Source of the DNA: Candidatus Aenigmatarchaeota archaeon
GTDB taxonomy: Archaea > Aenigmatarchaeota > Aenigmatarchaeia > CG10238-14 > SCSR01
NCBI GenBank assembly: GCA_039000165.1
Contig: JAWBTW010000016.1
Span: 1-17,350, forward strand
Direction: 5' to 3'
DNA length: 17,350 bases
Shown here: piece after piece, positions 9,001 through 17,350 of the stretch
Layout: each line of letters starts with the position of its first letter
Position numbering within the stretch: position 1 is the stretch's first letter
Position numbers: made by a program

Positions 9001-12000
9001 AAAGAGCTCAAAAGCAAAAGAATATCTTCTCTATTTCTTCTCAGTTCAATTATACTTTCAGGAAGCTTAACCTGAACTATTGGCAAGACTTTGTTAATTT
9101 CTTCTATCTGCTTTTTCATAACAAGAATGTCTTCCTTAATTTCCTCCAAATCCCTTTTGCTAACATAACCTTCAAACTTAACGTTCAAAGCATCTAAAGA
9201 TTTGATTATTTCCTTCAAGCTTTCCTCAACATCTTCTTGCTTAACCTTGTAAAGAGTTAAATCTTCTAAGCCTTTACTCAAATCAACAAATATCTTCTCA
9301 GTCTTTACTCCAATTCTTTCTATATACTTGACTGCTTCGTTTATATCTTCAACTTTTTTCTGGATTTCCTTGTTAATTCTTCCTATGTTTTCTAGACTTC
9401 CAATTCCTTTCAGCATTTCATAAACTGCGTTTATCTTTGTTCCTAAATCTTCTGTTTTTCTCTCAAGTTTTTCCAGAGCAAGCTGGTGTTTATCTATTAC
9501 GCCTAAAACTTCCCTAAACTTCTTAGAAATTTCTTGTGGCTTAACCTCAGAAACTTCATCCTCTATTTTCTCAAGTTTTATTGCAGTCTCTCTTATGCTT
9601 GTGTCAGCAGTTAAAATCATGCTTCTCAGCTCGCCTATACTTTCAGATATCGTTCTTATGCTTTCATCAGTAACTCTCAAACTTTCTCTCATAGTTTCTA
9701 TCATAACTTTCAACTTCTCTATTTCAACCATAAACTGCTCTGCTTCAATTTTCTTTAAAATTTTTTCACTTGTTTCTTCCCTAACCTCCTTTATTGGAGT
9801 TTCAACAGCTTTAGGTTCTTCTGCAGGAGGAGAAACTGGAGGGGACATCGCTACTTCAAGCTTAGCTTCTTCAGCTTTAGTTTCTTCTTCACTTTTAGCT
9901 ACTTTTTGTTCTTTCTTTCTCCCAAAAATTTTGCTTAAAAACCCAAGCCTTGCCTTAGGTTCTATTGTTTCAAAAGTTTTAACTTCAATTTTCTCCTCTT
10001 TCTTTTCTTCTTTTGGAACTTCAACTTCTTTTTCAACTTCTTCAGCTTCAACCTTTTCTTCCCTTGGCTTAACTTCAGCTTTAGCTCCCATCCTCTCTAA
10101 AAATTTGTTTATCTTCTCAAGTTTTTCAAGGTATTTTAGCTTTGTTTCCAAGTAACTTTTTTCGCTTATTTCTGCCTTTCTGTACTGATCTTCCAGAAAG
10201 CCTAGCATGCTTTCAAGCTCAGCTTTTTCTTCCTGAATCTTCTCAATTTTTTCTCTTTCAAATTTTTCCTTTCTTTCAACTTTCTTTTCAGTTTTCTCCA
10301 ATTTCTTACGTTTCTCTCTTTTTACCTTTTTGATTTTTTTCTTTGCCATTTATCCACCCATTTTTTCTATTCTCTTTTCAACAGACTCAAGATAAGTTTC
10401 GGCCATCTTGAAAGCTGCAGTCTTAACTTTATCCTTAGCTATGTTCAGCTCAATTTCAACATCGTAAGTATCAACCTTCTTCGCCTTTAGCTTCTCAATT
10501 CTCTTCTCCAATTCTTCGATCTTCTTCGTAAGCTTCATGTAAAGGTTAAGCTCCTCATCGGTCAAAGCAAAAGGCGAATGCAACAAAGGCCTAAAGCTAA
10601 CGAACCATGGCTTACCATAATTGTACTCAGGGTTCTGTACCATTCCTGTACCAACTGTTAGCTTCGTTACTCTAGAAGCATAATCCATACCATACTTTGA
10701 CCTTACTCTTCCTATATCTCCTTCGTACTTTGTTCTTAGCTGAATCTCGTTTGCTATGTTAGCTCTTATGGCTCCCTTGAAATCTTGTAATACTTGCGAG
10801 ATTAAGAAAACTCCAATTCCCCACTTTCTAAACTCTCTGCAAGCTCTTTCTATAGCTACATATCCTCCCTTTCCTCCATACTTTGGCAACAATCTATGAA
10901 CCTCGTCATAAACAAGTAACAATTTAATTTGCTTCGATTCTGGTGGTCTCATGTCAAATATTGCCTGAATGCTTCTTCTAACAAACTTGTCTAACTGCTC
11001 AGGAGGCAGCCTATTCATAACAAAAACAGTAATCTCTCCTGGGTTCATGTACTTCTTTATGTCTATGGGCATTTCTGGGTCTTCTACAACTATTATGTTA
11101 GTTTTGAAGCTTCTTGCATCTGTTGGCTTAAGACCGAACTTTGGATAGAGGTCAAGCATTTCTTTGAACCTGCAAGGTTTCATGAATCCTGTCCATTGAG
11201 CAGTAGGATCAAAAACTATTACAGGAACTTTTCTTTTCAGTAATTCTTCAGCACAAACCATTGCAGAGACACTTTTACCTGAGCCGGTACCACCAGCTGC
11301 TATCGAATGCATTAACAACTGAGAAATATCTAAGTATGCTTTAACATCAGTTTCGGCAATTTTTCCAACTTCTATTGAGTTTGGTCCTGGTTGAGGCAGT
11401 TTCTTGAATTCTACTGGTGCAATATACCTTGCTTTTGCTGCTTTCGCTGCTCTGTAAGCGCCGTACCACTTAATTCCTATTATCAACAGAGGAACCACAA
11501 CAAAAAGAATAACATAAGTTAGCCAATGCATGAATACACTTCTGAGTATAAAGATTGGTAGAGGAAGAACTGTTACTTCAAAGCTATCTGTTGAAATAGC
11601 ATACTTTATACCGTACCAATAGCTTGCGTTAACCTCTAAGACATACCTTCCTTCTGGTGTGTCAGAAGGAATTTCCAAACTTCTCACATAAGTTTTTTCT
11701 GTCTCTACTGCAAGAGTTTCTTTTGAAGTTGTTATTATTCTATCTTCGTTTAGTGGCTTAACAGTGTAAGTTACTGTTATATCTTCAACCTTAGCAGTTG
11801 GACCCATGTTTATAAGCTTAACCTCAAAAGTAAGGTTTGTCCCTGGGTTGATTGCTTTTGAAAGTATTTTTACGCTTACATCAAGCAAAGGTTCAGGAAC
11901 TTGTTGCACAACTATGGTTACAGGAGTCCTATGAACAATATTTCCTGCAGTAACAACTAGATCTCCAGTATAAATTCCTGGTGCAATTCTTGGAGGAGCA

Positions 12001-15000: not shown

Positions 15001-17350
15001 ACTATGTTTACAGTGTAAATTGCTTGATAAGCATTCCAAGGAACTGAATAGTCAACACTAACGTTTCTTGAAACTTGTTTTTCTAAGTCAAAGGCGGTTG
15101 TTCCTTTTGCTCCTGAAGGATAAGCAGTAACAAAAATACTTCCATTTCCAGACTTAAGAATCTCGAAAGGTATTTTTACGTTTCCTATGTTTGTTACGGT
15201 TATATTCCCTATGGTTCCGCTTGTGTTTAAGGGAAGTAAAACATAACCGAAGCTTTCTGGGCTTCTTATCCAAGAAGTATTTATTGGTATTGTTAAGTTG
15301 AGAAGCATTTCATCATATCCTGCATTGCTTGAGCTTGCTCTAACTTTTGTCCAGTAAATTCCTGGTGCTTGACCTGCAGGTACTGTTATCGTTATGTCTG
15401 AGACAAAACTTTCGCCTGCTGGAAGCAAGCCATAAGAGTTTGGAATTATAGATAAAACACAAAGCGGACAATCAAAAGCGAGGTTTCCTCCAACTGTGCT
15501 TATTGAAACATCTCTTACTTCATCATTTCCAGAAGCATAAGTTGTTATATTGCCAATATAAGTTGTCAAGTCGTGAGGAGTTGTTTTGTTTATGCTCTTC
15601 GGAATAACCTCTATTACAGGGTTTGAAGAAACTGTTATTGATGTTTCATTCAGTTTTTGCTCAACAGTTTTATCAGGGTTTTGCCATGTAGCTATAGTAT
15701 AAGCTCTTATTAGCTGCGGAGAAGTTTTTTCTGGAACTGTTATTTTGAAAACCCAAGAGCAGGTTTGTCCTGCATAAACTGTCCCGCACTCTTTTCTGCT
15801 TTCATTATAAGTTAGCGAACCTAAAGGATCTTCTGCATGAGTTAAGTTGACAGAATAAGCGGTTGCTGGTCCTAAGTTAGTAAAGTTAACAGAAACTTCA
15901 AAAGTAAAGCCTTGAGTTTGAGTTATGTTATAAGCTACTACGTAAGCAGGAAGTTGCTCAACCAAGCCAGAAATCTTCCCCCAAACGCTTATGTTACCAA
16001 CAAAAGTACTATTAACGTTAGATTCTGGTGGATAATCTCTTGCATAAACGCTTATGTTATACTCTCCTCCTATGGGTGGAAGGTAGCTTGCGGAATAAGT
16101 TGCTCTGAAAAATCCAAAACCTGTTTCCGGCACACTTATATTGCTCATAGGAACTATTACTATGCTTCCATTCGGCAAAGTAATGTTTGCCCAGACAGAT
16201 TCTATACCGTAATTATCAATTATTGTTGCGTTTATGTAAGTAAGATTAAGGTTTGCTTCTATGCTTGAGTTTGGAATTACAGAAAAGTTAAAGATTTTTG
16301 GCAAGCTTATATCTTTTACCCAAATCGTTTCTATAGCTTCTTTTATGTTTGGTGAATAGTACTGAGTAGCGTTTTCTCCTATAGAACAATTAAAAGTAAT
16401 GTTTCCTTTTTGTGTTGGAATAAAAACATAACTTGCATAGCCAGAAGAATTAGTTGTATAACTTCCGTTAAATATAAATTCAGAGGAAGGTTCCCACTTG
16501 TAAGAAAAGTTGACCTCATAATCAGAAATTCCTGCTCCAGATTCATGATCTTTTACCAAACAAGTTGGATAGAATTCTTCTGGATAGGGAGTTATTCCTA
16601 TTGGCGAAACCCAAACAACATCTGCTAAACCAGTTATTATTATACTAACGTTTGATTTTCCATCTTCATAATAACTTTTGCTTGCAATTGCCATAAGCTG
16701 ATGAGGTCCTGTTCTTTGCTGAGCAACTATTGGCTGAGGCAGAGTTACTTCCAAGCCTACGGCAAGCAATGCAGTTTCGTTGTACCATTTAACTGTCGGG
16801 TTAAGAACAGAAGAGTTTTCTCCATTTTCACTTATTACAGTTGCGCTTAAATCTATAGCTTCTGATTTTGGATGAAGACTTTCGTTTAGTGGTGAAGTAA
16901 TGTTAACAAATAAAATTCCTTTAACTGTTATTGAAGTTGAATTGGTTAGAGAATCTTCATTTCCTGGCCTTGTTGCGTTTATGTATATTACATAAGGTGA
17001 AGGAGTGTAATCGTCTGGCGGGTTAAAGTCAATTAGCTCGCACCATCCTGTTGAGTTTGTTAAGCAACTGAATAAGAAATGAGTTGAGTTGTAAAAGCTA
17101 ACGTTTGCGTTGCTAGCATGCCCTATTTGAGCATCCCTAACATGAACGCTTATGTTTGTTTGGTATGGAGTGAAAGAATCGTTTCTATAAACCCAAGGAT
17201 ATTGAGGAATTATTTGATCAATTTGTAAAGGTCTGCTGAGCCTTATCCAAGTTTCCATTTGTGCTAAAGTAGCGTTATAGTATAAAGTTGAGTTGCTTTC
17301 AATAAAACAAGTTAAGTTGTACCATCCTGCCCCTTCCAAGTTAGTGTACC

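Follow-up and report, generated by a model that had tools for sequence, protein, structure and literature searches.

The window, by which we mean the whole 17,350-nucleotide stretch of DNA analysed here, carries the 3′ part of a giant surface-protein gene on the minus strand (10350..17348; 2332 codons plus the stop). As the survey's finding had it, this 2332-aa frame is open throughout, cut at its 5′ end, and runs off the end of the window. All 2332 residues align to residues 9072–11403 of an orthologue in genome G003/L014, at 98.7% identity. DNA identity of 97.8% over 10.5 kb places that genome in the same species as the window genome; its orthologue, which has a signal peptide, is an uninterrupted frame of 11,403 aa. 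The start of the window gene and its signal peptide lie at the end of another contig, C9 (G000:C9:29786-30112), where 85 of 109 encoded residues are identical to the start of the orthologue, and the window therefore holds only the last fifth of the gene. The full gene is about 34 kb long and its product about 11,400 residues, about five times the part in the window. Some 27 kb between C9 and the window contig, C16, are missing from the window's own assembly (G000); the 34-kb frame is documented in the sister genome, not in G000. The first 20-kb stretch, comprising flank and the 5′ 17.7 kb of the gene, is covered in 28–30 of 30 bins by contigs from four hot-spring runs. Run X7 gives error-free pieces which overlap end to end and tile positions 3280–9609, 11970–15234 and 17052–19307. 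The organism is a small-genome hot-spring DPANN archaeon, whose relatives are labelled Aenigmatarchaeota.

The extracellular part in the window (residues 1–1925; 11574..17348; this and all features below are on the minus strand) contains 99 N-x-S/T sequons and sparse matches to beta-sandwich and Ig-like families. NPCBM_assoc repeats had been claimed for both this protein and its paralogue on contig C15. The Pfam match in the window protein is reproduced (1.4e-17), and an iterated HMM finds three NEW3/NPCBM_assoc-type beta-sandwich copies there, the only ones detectable by sequence: residues 599–673 (15330..15554; E 8e-38 against its own profile), 918–999 (14352..14597) and 1041–1113 (14010..14228), the last being the Pfam match itself. 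In the C15 paralogue no copy is found at E≤0.01. Other family matches (MG2, DUF11, Big_1, NEW3, Filamin, Big_7) are few and mostly under cut-off. Because family annotation of the ectodomain is almost absent, we infer 'adhesin' from domain type and glycosylation sequons. Closer to the membrane lies a conserved stalk. It consists of a four-cysteine knot, CGNGECESEAGESTSNCPIDC (residues 1652–1672; 12333..12395), conserved in the paralogue and, in members of the family that are short, placed right behind the signal peptide; a Pro/Gly-rich linker evident from sequence and the paralogue alignment (residues 1673–1712; 12213..12332); and two membrane-proximal beta-sandwich domains (residues ~1715–1925; 11574..12206) that are likewise conserved in the paralogue and in short members of the family. 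A weak Nis1 match at residues 1832–1927 is below the Pfam cut-off.

A single transmembrane helix follows (residues 1930–1965; 11454..11561), indicated by hydropathy and by helix 6–48 of an AF2 model. The hydrophobic segments named by the survey are thus recovered, that of the C15 paralogue at residues 766–791, and the gap of about 60 residues to the ATPase measures 54 residues from helix end to Walker A in the window protein. The proposed single-pass topology with a large outside part is borne out by the signal peptide (in the orthologue and on C9), by the bias in sequons and by a Lys/Arg-rich stretch, YRAAKAAKARY, directly C-terminal of the helix. Whereas 99 sequons lie N-terminal of the helix in the window protein, none lies C-terminal of it, and the ectodomain of the orthologue has 508 N-x-S/T sequons versus 171±11 in shuffles. 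The same organization is seen across the family: among 279 proteins surveyed, the outer part has the denser sequons in 255 of 255, and a hydrophobic segment stands at most 90 aa upstream of the core in 273 of 278.

The cytoplasmic part is a HerA-clade P-loop ATPase (core residues ~1990–2262; 10563..11381), recognized by Pfam, NCBIfam, alignment, the AF2 model, Foldseek, a profile search of PDB sequences and PADLOC. Assignment to the HerA/FtsK superfamily, as proposed earlier, is confirmed by Pfam, profile and fold matches. DUF87 is found again at 1.4e-10 (42.1 bits; cut-off 23.2), HerA_C matches at 1.6e-5, and PHROG 7035 and a terminase PHROG reappear at 1.3e-13 and 4.7e-6; the Atlas score obtained for the module is 0.91 rather than 0.97. 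The AF2 model has a pLDDT of 91.7, and its best Foldseek match is HerA (4d2i, E 7e-13), followed by HerA-Sir2 and HerA-NurA, with FtsK ranking 28th and TcpA 36th. Searching PDB sequences with a profile returns seven HerA-type sequences (4e-11 to 7e-8) and no VirB4 chain at E≤1, and the PADLOC HerA model matches at 1.2e-14. The catalytic motifs are Walker A GGTGSGKS (residues 2019–2026; 11271..11294), Walker B LLLVYDEVHR (residues 2143–2152; 10893..10922) and REFRKWGIG (residues 2171–2179; 10812..10838), which aligns with REGRKFGVG of archaeal HerA and presumably supplies an arginine finger. In 27 of 27 aligned modules, Walker A (its G, T, G, G and K), FDPTxQWxG, DExHR (the D, E, H and R of Walker B), REFRKWGxG and SQ are all invariant, and the Walker A pattern occurs in all 279 family proteins. 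The module closes with a three-helix C-terminal tail (residues 2264–2329; 10362..10559; model helices 340–365, 371–385 and 389–405). Taken together, the ATPase reads as HerA-like, not VirB4-like or restriction-like.

Directly downstream on the same strand is a partner gene (8655..10349) encoding 564 aa. The product is Glu/Lys-rich, and only weak matches mark it as helical. The ATG of the partner gene adjoins the stop codon of the giant gene at the adjacent base, and the two are probably co-translated. A same-strand ORF stands just downstream in 78 of 80 related loci, and 68 of those 78 match the partner, P0002, at E≤1e-3, mostly 1e-30 to 1e-130. The weak matches are of coiled-coil type (SMC, Rad50 and ASRP at 1e-3 to 1e-4 in NCBIfam), and SHOCT is matched in 5 of 23 partner-family members. 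No PADLOC defence family matches the partner better than 3e-4. We saw no third conserved downstream gene, the best group occurring in 17 loci.

The relationship to the C15 gene (C15:3-3506; 1168 aa, likewise 5′-cut) is as reported, with 34% identity over 1028 aa (E 2e-156), and its Pfam matches recur (DUF87 6.2e-12; HerA_C 4.4e-7). It has its own copy of the partner gene (28% identity over 207 aa, E 5e-17). The window gene and the C15 paralogue represent old, separate subfamilies. A MinD/ParA-type ATPase gene stands after the C15 gene pair.

The membrane-ATPase module marks out a family peculiar to DPANN archaea. At E≤1e-30 it is matched by 369 cluster representatives; in all 150 matches listed it lies at or near the C-terminus, in proteins of 356–7665 aa, and the source labels of family members are almost all DPANN. 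The distribution of the fused form, left aside in the survey, proves wide across DPANN phyla. Within the window's own phylum, 135 of 301 genomes carry the module, as do 48 of the 98 that are high-quality; open frames with it reach 14,526 aa there and exceed 10,000 aa in many genomes. The module is also found in 27 of 70 Nanohaloarchaeota genomes (E≤1e-20), in 37 of 201 genomes of the phylum of a Woesearchaeota-labelled genome and in 10 of 151 of the phylum of a Micrarchaeota-labelled genome. As a control, the phylum of a Heimdall-labelled bin gave 1 of 151, that one being the seed bin itself. Family members whose ectodomain spans just 200–300 aa retain the module, and hence the job of the motor cannot depend on gigantism.

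The product is a SPEARE-type, type I membrane protein with a signal peptide, an ectodomain of about 11,000 residues that is rich in sequons and beta-sandwiches, a stalk, one helix, a HerA-clade ring-ATPase domain and a helical tail. We hold this architecture and the family assignment with high confidence. Overall, such a protein working with a cytoplasmic ring translocase is the probable reading of the locus, and the function we infer is host adhesion coupled to that ATP-driven ring. The outer part would reach and bind a host cell or surface, and the cytoplasmic domains would form a ring, like solved relatives of the family. Such a ring may act on a polymer, pulling or pushing it through the symbiont membrane where contact is made; going by HerA, FtsK and CedB/CedD, this would most likely be DNA. 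The partner protein could be a cytoplasmic adaptor or regulator. We propose this contact-site mechanism only tentatively, as it falls short of an even chance. One helix per subunit makes a six-helix bundle at most, with no obvious channel, and among the neighbours of the giant gene there is no channel-forming candidate, whether VirB6- or CedA-like or an FtsK-type polytopic membrane part.

It is also conceivable, if unlikely, that no cargo is moved, and that ring and partner anchor, tension, cluster or remodel the giant protein or the contact-site membrane, as a cytoskeleton-like anchor or an aid to fusion or fission. The solitary helix and absent channel partner fit such a mechanical role, as do the helical tail that closes the modelled module, its pairing with a long Glu/Lys-rich protein whose only matches are weak and of coiled-coil type, and the MinD/ParA-type ATPase after the C15 pair. 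However, the solved relatives of the fold are nucleic-acid translocases, the invariant ring-ATPase motifs are typical of pumping enzymes, and the present tests gave this role no direct support.

Slightly less likely again is a type IV-secretion-like 'straw', in which the giant binds the host and a VirB4/TraG-like ATPase exports effectors into it, as proposed in the 2023 study (PMC10266531) for nanohaloarchaeal giants of the same architecture. Nanohaloarchaeota do have another ATPase frame, of 620–680 aa, behind the giant one, and our paralogue weakly matches T4SS-DNA_transf (9.5e-4) and TrwB_AAD_bind (1.2e-3) in Pfam. Further weak matches are to TraC (1.5e-3) and TraD (5e-3) in NCBIfam and to DotL (9e-4) among PDB sequences. 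All these coupling-protein, TraC and TraD matches are far under family cut-offs, though, and HerA models and structures rank top by both sequence and fold. Pfam finds no VirB4 N-terminal domain in the window protein, and AAA_10 matches over cut-off nowhere in the genome. Moreover, the downstream gene here is helical, not a second ATPase, and the nanohaloarchaeal second ATPase is itself a paralogue of the same module (44–47% identical).

A role in antiviral defence, as a membrane-anchored HerA with an outside sensor resembling HerA-Sir2 or HerA-DUF4297, strikes us as improbable. Defence-system HerA models are the top PADLOC matches (mad8 also matches, at 3e-12 in the window module and 2e-17 in the paralogue), and defence HerA structures are among the top fold matches, yet no effector such as Sir2 or a nuclease is fused or adjacent, and the partner lacks a defence match of note. 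A glycosylated ectodomain of 11,000 aa with a signal peptide is without parallel in HerA defence systems, and only DPANN lineages that depend on hosts have the family. We give still less credence to restriction-like degradation of imported DNA, the original SPEARE reading, in which the cytoplasmic part carries type III restriction-enzyme domains (reported in PMC6642349). ResIII does match the paralogue (4.4e-5; 23.9 bits, just over the cut-off of 22.5), but over the shared P-loop region alone (834–981), and the window protein has no ResIII match at E≤0.01. Pfam detects no nuclease or helicase C-terminal domain in either paralogue, the fold is HerA-like, and PMC10266531 likewise found no endonuclease domain in the nanohaloarchaeal giants. 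That ectodomain and ATPase are separate genes, or the giant frame a chimera, is hardly credible: both copies in the assembly end at contig edges, the middle of the gene is absent from G000 and run contigs are heavily fragmented over it (88–701 pieces), but the ectodomain–helix–ATPase junction is stop-free well inside the window and recurs in the 273 of 278 proteins from many assemblies, frames above 10,000 aa are recurrent in the phylum, and the X7 pieces tile three parts of the 20-kb stretch.

Among known translocases, HerA (Sulfolobus solfataricus 4d2i; HerA-NurA; the bacterial HerA-Sir2 and HerA-DUF4297) is the best match by fold, profile, Pfam, NCBIfam and PADLOC, with Walker A, Walker B and R-E-x-R-K-x-G-x-G in common. 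Identity is only 12–19% (Foldseek), however, NCBIfam HerA models score 27–38 bits against cut-offs of 800–970, and the present module is membrane-anchored, bears an extracellular part and is without NurA or an effector partner. Classical HerA carries an N-terminal barrel domain, for which the 54 residues between helix and Walker A leave no room. FtsK/SpoIIIE and the coupling proteins (TrwB, TcpA, DotL) are membrane-anchored ring pumps for DNA of the same superfamily, and match less well than HerA both by fold (2ius, E 2e-9; 6o1w, 1e-8) and in the profile search of PDB sequences. Proteins of this conjugative and FtsK-type group either contain several helices or rely on channel partners encoded separately, and are not known to have an ectodomain. 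CedB and CedD, which power intercellular DNA import in the crenarchaeal Ced system, are described (PMC11868833) as membrane-anchored HerA-clade archaeal ATPases with a TM, a short N-terminal part and an ATPase. The CedD model matches the module at 1.2e-9 and the C15 paralogue at 1.2e-13, at 37–51 bits, far under the NCBIfam cut-off of 600. Ced ATPases have no giant ectodomain and operate together with channel proteins of the CedA type; the window gene has no such neighbour.

The architecture itself is already published, as SPEARE proteins in 2019 (Hamm et al.; PMC6642349), re-read in 2023 (Front Microbiol; PMC10266531). The earlier paper states a laminin-G domain for all SPEARE proteins and notes that Aenigmarchaeota, Woesearchaeota, Micrarchaeota and Altiarchaeales have cytoplasmic sequences resembling theirs; the later one describes giants of 9,409 aa (SVXNc_0300) and 8,880 aa (BNXNv_0298) with a signal peptide, an Ig-like array, a TM, a cytosolic ATPase re-annotated as VirB4/TraG-like and a coiled-coil tip. 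Our module is 42–47% identical (E 1e-100 to 1e-112) to those ending nanohaloarchaeal frames of 7,873–9,433 aa, and the parts follow one another alike, from a signal peptide through a very long adhesion-type ectodomain and one near-C-terminal helix to a conserved cytoplasmic P-loop ATPase and a helical tip. The differences are several. The organism here is an Aenigmatarchaeota-type archaeon from a hot spring instead of a halophile; the domain search of the ectodomain detects no laminin-G domain, propeller, protease or toxin-like part; a helical partner gene stands downstream in place of the second ATPase frame (620–680 aa) of Nanohaloarchaeota; and the protein, at 11,403 aa with frames to 14,526 aa in its phylum, exceeds the sizes given in both papers. 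The ATPase, published there as ResIII or VirB4/TraG, here reads as HerA-clade. To the published type, our analysis thus adds a HerA-like ATPase, invariant catalytic motifs, a conserved helical partner gene and old paralogous subfamilies.

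The open reading frame that reaches the end of the window (10350-17348, minus strand; 2332 codons) continues past it, and a sister genome of the same species (G003, locus L014; 97.8% DNA identity to the window over 10.5 kb) gives the full extent of the gene. There, the frame that carries the ATPase module runs for 11,428 codons, free of stops and Ns, and encodes 11,403 aa from its first ATG, beginning with the signal-peptide-like MSRKSEVGQSQLFLAFLVLLSGITLVIA. The window protein aligns over its entire length to residues 9072-11403 of this orthologue (98.7% identity). The same start is encoded in the window's own genome at C9:29786, where the gene occupies C9:29786-30112 before the contig ends (85 of 109 residues identical to the sister start). 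At the sequence level, these two matches indicate that the window ORF is the last fifth of a ~34-kb gene, split in this assembly between C9 and the window's contig, C16; about 27 kb of the sister-genome gene has no counterpart in the assembly. Between strains, the 5′ end of the gene (L094:2257-6003, on a 20-kb stretch of the sister genome; G000:C9:29785-30047) shows 90% DNA identity, versus 98% in the flanks. We rejected P0153 (3,203 aa, 85% identical to the window protein) as a full-length form. It begins mid-protein with Leu, lacks a signal peptide, and aligns from its residue 1 to position 8203 of the 11,403-aa frame; it is therefore a partial gene call rather than a shorter version. A preprint (10.1101/2023.11.21.568195) already notes a few archaeal genes of >10,000 aa, mostly from Asgard archaea, so size alone is not a first.

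The survey's finding had described the window protein and a second 5′-cut giant, on contig C15, as paralogues with a long outer part, one helix and a HerA/FtsK-type ATPase inside, and this structural reading is right. The two proteins share 34% identity over 1028 residues (E 2e-156). The Pfam values cited for the window protein were reproduced exactly, both for NPCBM_assoc (1.4e-17, residues 1035-1112) and for DUF87 (PF01935; 1.4e-10 at 1992-2078, 42.1 bits against a gathering cut-off of 23.2), and HerA_C matches at 1.6e-5; those for the paralogue (DUF87 6.2e-12, 46.5 bits; HerA_C, here 4.4e-7) and the PHROG 7035 and terminase PHROG matches were recovered as well. The Atlas score of 0.97 was not, the module giving 0.91. 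Hydropathy picks out one strong segment in each protein, at 1930-1965 of 2332 in the window protein and 766-791 in the paralogue, with the ATPase beyond it. Downstream of the helix come a Lys/Arg-rich stretch and a conserved R-Y-x-x-P...L-P motif, and in the window protein 54 residues separate the end of the helix from Walker A.

In the orthologue, the ectodomain abounds in Asn, Ser and Thr, with 508 N-x-S/T sequons compared with 171±11 in shuffles of the same residues; 99 lie in the window's part. After the helix, the window protein has none against 0.85 expected, which is not significant alone (P(0) 0.41), and the outside location is therefore argued from the three-fold excess together with the contrast seen across the family. 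For the latter we pooled 281 proteins and kept 279, in which the module spans at least 270 of 305 core residues (two were dropped). Sequon density was higher outside than inside in 255/255 of the pooled proteins (medians 5.07 versus 0.0 per 100 aa). A hydrophobic segment lies within 90 residues before the core in 273 of the 278 with enough upstream sequence, and an N-terminal hydrophobic segment is present in 119 of the 202 with a Met start and >300 aa outside. We infer that the ectodomain of the window protein lies outside the cell, followed by one helix and a cytoplasmic C-terminal region.

Pfam matches in the orthologue are sparse (MG2, DUF11, Big_1, NEW3, Filamin, Big_7, Big_3_5), most of them below cut-offs. 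An iterated HMM finds only three NEW3-type copies in the window's part, and the remaining ectodomain is too divergent for sequence methods. Close to the membrane, the window protein, the paralogue and the short members of the family have a stalk in common, made of a four-cysteine knot, a Pro/Gly-rich linker and two beta-sandwich domains. The knot of this conserved stalk in the window protein is CGNGECESEAGESTSNCPIDC (residues 1652-1672; window 12333-12395, minus strand). In the giants its motif, C-G-x-x-x-C-E-x-G-E-x-x-x-N-C-P-x-D-C (columns 140-170 of the module alignment, A1), sits at the ectodomain base, and the same cysteine motif follows immediately after the signal peptide in short members P0038, P0100, P0110, P0140, P0150 and P0050. 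We found no family name for this motif. A third 5′-cut surface protein of the same genome (G000:C4:3-4244, locus L007; 1414 aa) has three NEW3 and two MG2 copies and a C-terminal membrane helix (1276-1316), and no ATPase. Parts of the window protein ectodomain match it at 31% identity; thus ectodomain modules are shared with ordinary anchored surface proteins.

Five motifs are invariant in all 27 aligned modules: Walker A (GxTGxGK), FDPTxQWxG, Walker B with DExHR, REFRKWGxG, and SQ. The Walker A pattern is likewise present in 279/279 pooled modules, and Walker A, Walker B (DExH) and R-E-x-R-K-x-G align with the same stretches of HerA chains. The AlphaFold2 model of the 408-residue module (mean pLDDT 91.7) consists of a long helix (6-48), a RecA-like core and three C-terminal helices (340-405), with two short strands between the membrane helix and Walker A. 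When this model is compared with the PDB by Foldseek, the top ranks are all HerA (E 7e-13 to 1e-9), led by Sulfolobus 4d2i (7e-13) and continuing with bacterial HerA-Sir2, HerA-NurA and HerA-DUF4297; FtsK (2ius) ranks 28th and the coupling protein TcpA 36th. Against PDB sequences, a profile built from the 27 modules finds seven HerA-type chains at 4e-11 to 7e-8, DotL at 9e-4, FtsK at 0.035 and TrwB at 0.42, and no VirB4 chain at E≤1. Among NCBIfam models, HerA_Thermprot matches at 8e-10 (37.7 bits, cut-off 800), helicase_HerA at 26.7 bits (cut-off 970), and CedD at 1.2e-9 for the module (37.4 bits) and 1.2e-13 for the paralogue (50.6 bits; cut-off 600). The PADLOC HerA model matches at 1.2e-14. 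With HerA first in these searches, we conclude that the module forms a branch of its own next to HerA within the FtsK-HerA superfamily. Pfam detects no VirB4 N-terminal domain in the window protein, AAA_10 is above cut-off nowhere in a genome-wide scan, and the NCBIfam TraC-F-type model scores 16.6 bits against a cut-off of 567. Four more DUF87-type ATPase genes lie elsewhere in the genome, on C3, C1, C5 and C10 (frames of 501, 708, 424 and 561 codons); the one on C3, the best DUF87 match there (1.3e-31), may be its classical HerA.

The gene 3′ of the giant is a conserved companion. Its start base adjoins the giant gene's stop codon (window 8655-10349, minus strand), and its 564-aa, Glu/Lys-rich product has no Pfam family and no P-loop. 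A same-strand ORF lies just 3′ of the giant gene in 78 of 80 related loci from species-representative genomes, and in 68 of the 78 this ORF has a match to the partner at E≤1e-3, mostly between 1e-30 and 1e-130; loci labelled Micrarchaeota, Nanohalarchaeota, Altiarchaeota and Nanoarchaeia are among them. The gene downstream of the C15 paralogue is a second copy (28% identity over 207 aa, E 5e-17). Conservation centres on residues ~200-500. Composition and weak helical or coiled-coil-type matches (SMC, Rad50, ASRP; SHOCT in 5 of 23 members, best 7e-4) suggest a helical protein, and its Atlas matches are all to archaeal clusters without names. Complex prediction for the cytoplasmic domain (A1 42-408) with the partner core (residues 195-500 of the partner alignment, A2) scored 0.01, which counts neither for nor against a pairing. 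No third downstream gene is widespread among the related loci, the largest groups covering 10, 17 and 13 of them. We found no published account of the partner gene in the literature searched, a scope that excludes the supplement of PMC6642349.

A sensory gene cluster adjoins this operon (window 1342-8658). By Pfam it comprises a triple-PAS protein (1342-2631), a family-5 solute-binding protein (2628-4208), a HAMP-HisKA-HATPase histidine kinase (4196-5884), a MEDS-domain protein (6910-7563, minus strand), a receiver-only response regulator (7644-8015) and a CheX-like protein with a weak match (8026-8658). Two further ORFs, one of 420 aa and open at its 3′ end (1-1260, minus strand) and one of 252 aa (5886-6644, plus strand), match no Pfam or NCBIfam family.

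How widely the fused form occurs had been left unexamined in the survey; in our scan the module is present in 135 of the 301 genomes covered from the window's phylum (48 of the 98 of high quality), in frames of up to 14,526 codons, many of them >10,000. It is also found in 27 of 70 Nanohaloarchaeota genomes (E≤1e-20), in 10 of 151 from the phylum of a Micrarchaeota-labelled genome, and in 37 of 201 from the phylum of a Woesearchaeota-labelled genome, there mostly in frames of 1,200-1,400 codons. Of 1.84 billion cluster representatives, 1063 proteins match the module at E≤1e-3, and 369 of these also pass E≤1e-30. Nearly every named member is from DPANN archaea (Aenigm-, Micr-, Woese-, Pace-, Nanohalo- and Nanoarchaeota). 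Among the matches listed, the module is at or near the C-terminus in 150/150, in proteins of 356-7665 aa, and member ectodomains are very diverse (NEW3, MG2, PQQ-type propellers, concanavalin/laminin-G-type, parallel beta-helix, TPR). Contigs from Heimdallarchaeota- and Halanaerobiaceae-labelled bins (L043 and L084; 3.5 and 3.9 kb) carry the module at 56-67% identity. We rejected a wider range based on such bins, whose module-bearing contigs are 2.5-3.9 kb and probably mis-binned: in the phylum of the Heimdallarchaeota-labelled bin, the one bin that this control covers, the module occurs in 1 of 151 genomes, the seed bin itself.

A FastTree of the 279 modules places the window protein in a 21-member clade (support 0.998) whose lengths vary strongly; the C15 protein belongs to another clade, of 34 members (support 0.971), whose lengths are uniform at ~2,200 aa. 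One member of each type is present in many genomes of the order, and the tree points to two old subfamilies. In the sister genome the C15 gene is complete (2,184 aa), has an N-terminal beta-propeller (PF25292, 1.5e-14), and is followed by its own partner gene and then by a gene for a MinD/ParA-type P-loop ATPase. The latter (CbiA 6.8e-21, ParA 1e-19) lies directly 3′ of the paralogue's partner on the same strand (G000:C15:4432-5205; L100:9071-9841).

The window's genome (783 kb in 25 contigs, 91.6% complete, ~33% G+C) has MAGs labelled Candidatus Aenigmatarchaeota as its nearest named relatives. All 10 runs that contain the window stretch are hot-spring metagenomes, from four studies; three are possibly the assembly's own source. 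A reverse gyrase gene (zinc finger, DEAD helicase, Toprim), truncated at a contig end, is present at G000:C8:30322-32589 (L011:2323-4590). Together with the hot-spring-only runs, it fits a thermophile.

DPANN archaea live attached to hosts and are unable to make the majority of their building blocks. The way in which material passes between them and host cells is an open question, and the module family is one of few candidate contact machines. The set of features observed here comprises a secreted, sequon-rich, repeat-built outer part, one anchor helix, an intact and constrained HerA-type motor, and a conserved partner, in host-dependent archaea only. In the scheme that we consider the most likely, the outer part would bind the host cell, the motor would form a ring as its solved relatives do, the ring would move a polymer across the symbiont membrane at the contact site, and the partner would act as an adaptor. 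DNA would be the best guess for the polymer, by analogy with the HerA, FtsK and Ced ATPases (PMC11868833). In a bolder and rather improbable reading, cysteine knot, two beta-sandwich domains, helix, HerA-clade ATPase and helical partner would form a DPANN-specific trans-envelope machine: a ring of six single-helix subunits would import DNA, or some other polymer, from the host where its own ectodomain builds a contact, without type IV secretion or Ced components, the ectodomain (200 to >14,000 residues) being swapped and expanded to match hosts. One helix per subunit and the lack of any channel protein conserved nearby argue against a simple channel. Short members, with ectodomains of 200-300 aa, retain the motor, so handling a giant chain cannot be its sole purpose.

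It is also possible, if doubtful, that the motor and the helical partner together do mechanical or organising work. The secretion 'straw' published for nanohaloarchaeal giants, a type IV-secretion-like device (PMC10266531), is a rather improbable account here, weakened by the absence of any VirB4-specific signal. A role in antiviral defence seems very unlikely. Restriction-like DNA degradation is harder still to credit: ResIII is absent from the window protein at E≤0.01 in Pfam, and the paralogue's match (23.9 bits) is confined to the P-loop stretch. Finally, an assembly artefact is scarcely conceivable. The first 20-kb stretch of the sister locus, holding the upstream flank and the 5′ 17.7 kb of the gene, is covered in 28-30 of 30 bins by contigs from four hot-spring runs, with error-free, end-to-end overlapping pieces in one run at 3280-9609, 11970-15234 and 17052-19307 of the stretch. 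The runs that contain the window give hundreds of short pieces over it, at 85-99% identity, and their depth falls to 5-8x across 2 kb (L094 4003-6003) versus 200-400x in adjacent bins. The short divergent pieces and the dip suggest that the ectodomain varies between strains, and such variation would account for the assembly break; the 2-kb region may be a hypervariable part of the ectodomain.

The giant gene is costly, at ~4% of a 0.8-Mb genome, the module family is common in the phylum, and its motor part is under clear constraint. The idea published for Nanohaloarchaeota is now more testable, with a HerA-type ATPase, invariant motifs and a conserved partner to work from, and short members (~600-1,400 aa) with the same core offer tractable constructs for biochemistry and structure. 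This analysis adds the true size and both ends of the gene, a HerA assignment in place of VirB4 or ResIII, the invariance of the motifs, the partner gene, the division into two old subfamilies and the frequency figures. On Aenigmatarchaeota giants we found nothing in the literature searched beyond one sentence in PMC6642349, whose supplement may list them.

Classical HerA has an N-terminal barrel domain before the ATPase. With only 54 residues from helix to Walker A, the module has no room for such a barrel. Unlike the HerA equivalogs, it falls far below the NCBIfam cut-offs and has no NurA neighbour, the adjoining gene encoding the helical partner. It is also below the equivalog cut-off for CedD, one of the CedB/CedD DNA-import ATPases. 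Compared with VirB4/TraG, it lacks the VirB4 N-terminal domain and matches HerA better than VirB4 or coupling proteins; of a type III restriction Res subunit, neither the helicase C-terminal part nor the nuclease part was detected in it.

The closest published counterparts are the SPEARE proteins of Nanohaloarchaeota. According to PMC6642349, these reach 8,553 aa and are mostly extracellular, with a helix near the C-terminus and at least one laminin-G domain in every ectodomain; peptides were detected, the conserved cytoplasmic part was taken as a type III restriction enzyme, and Woese-, Aenigm- and Micrarchaeota and Altiarchaeales were noted to have cytoplasmic sequences like it. PMC10266531 re-analysed them with two proteins of 9,409 and 8,880 aa, describing a signal peptide, Ig-like array, helix, cytosolic 'VirB4/TraG-like' ATPase and coiled-coil tip, and a second ATPase gene immediately 3′ of the giant gene. 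In five Nanohaloarchaeota genomes (G353, G355, G342, G343, G325), a giant frame of 7,873-9,433 codons is indeed followed within ~1 kb by one of 620-680 codons. The module recurs in the shorter frame, 44-47% identical to the window's copy, so that frame is a paralogue of the module, not VirB4. The gene 3′ of the window giant, by contrast, encodes the 564-aa helical protein without a P-loop rather than a second ATPase. The window protein also departs from the SPEARE description in PMC6642349 in that Pfam scans of all four pieces of its 11,403-aa orthologue detect no laminin-G family at E≤1e-3; PF13385 or PF02210 is present in other members of the module family. The likenesses extend over the whole architecture: a very long, mostly extracytoplasmic orthologue with an N-terminal signal peptide, a single helix near the C-terminus, a conserved P-loop region and a three-helix tip after the ATPase. 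The window module and those that end the nanohaloarchaeal giant frames share 42-47% identity (E 1e-100 to 1e-112), a homology matched to genome frames, the named SPEARE proteins being linked by description. Judged by this identity, the window protein belongs to the SPEARE kind already in print.
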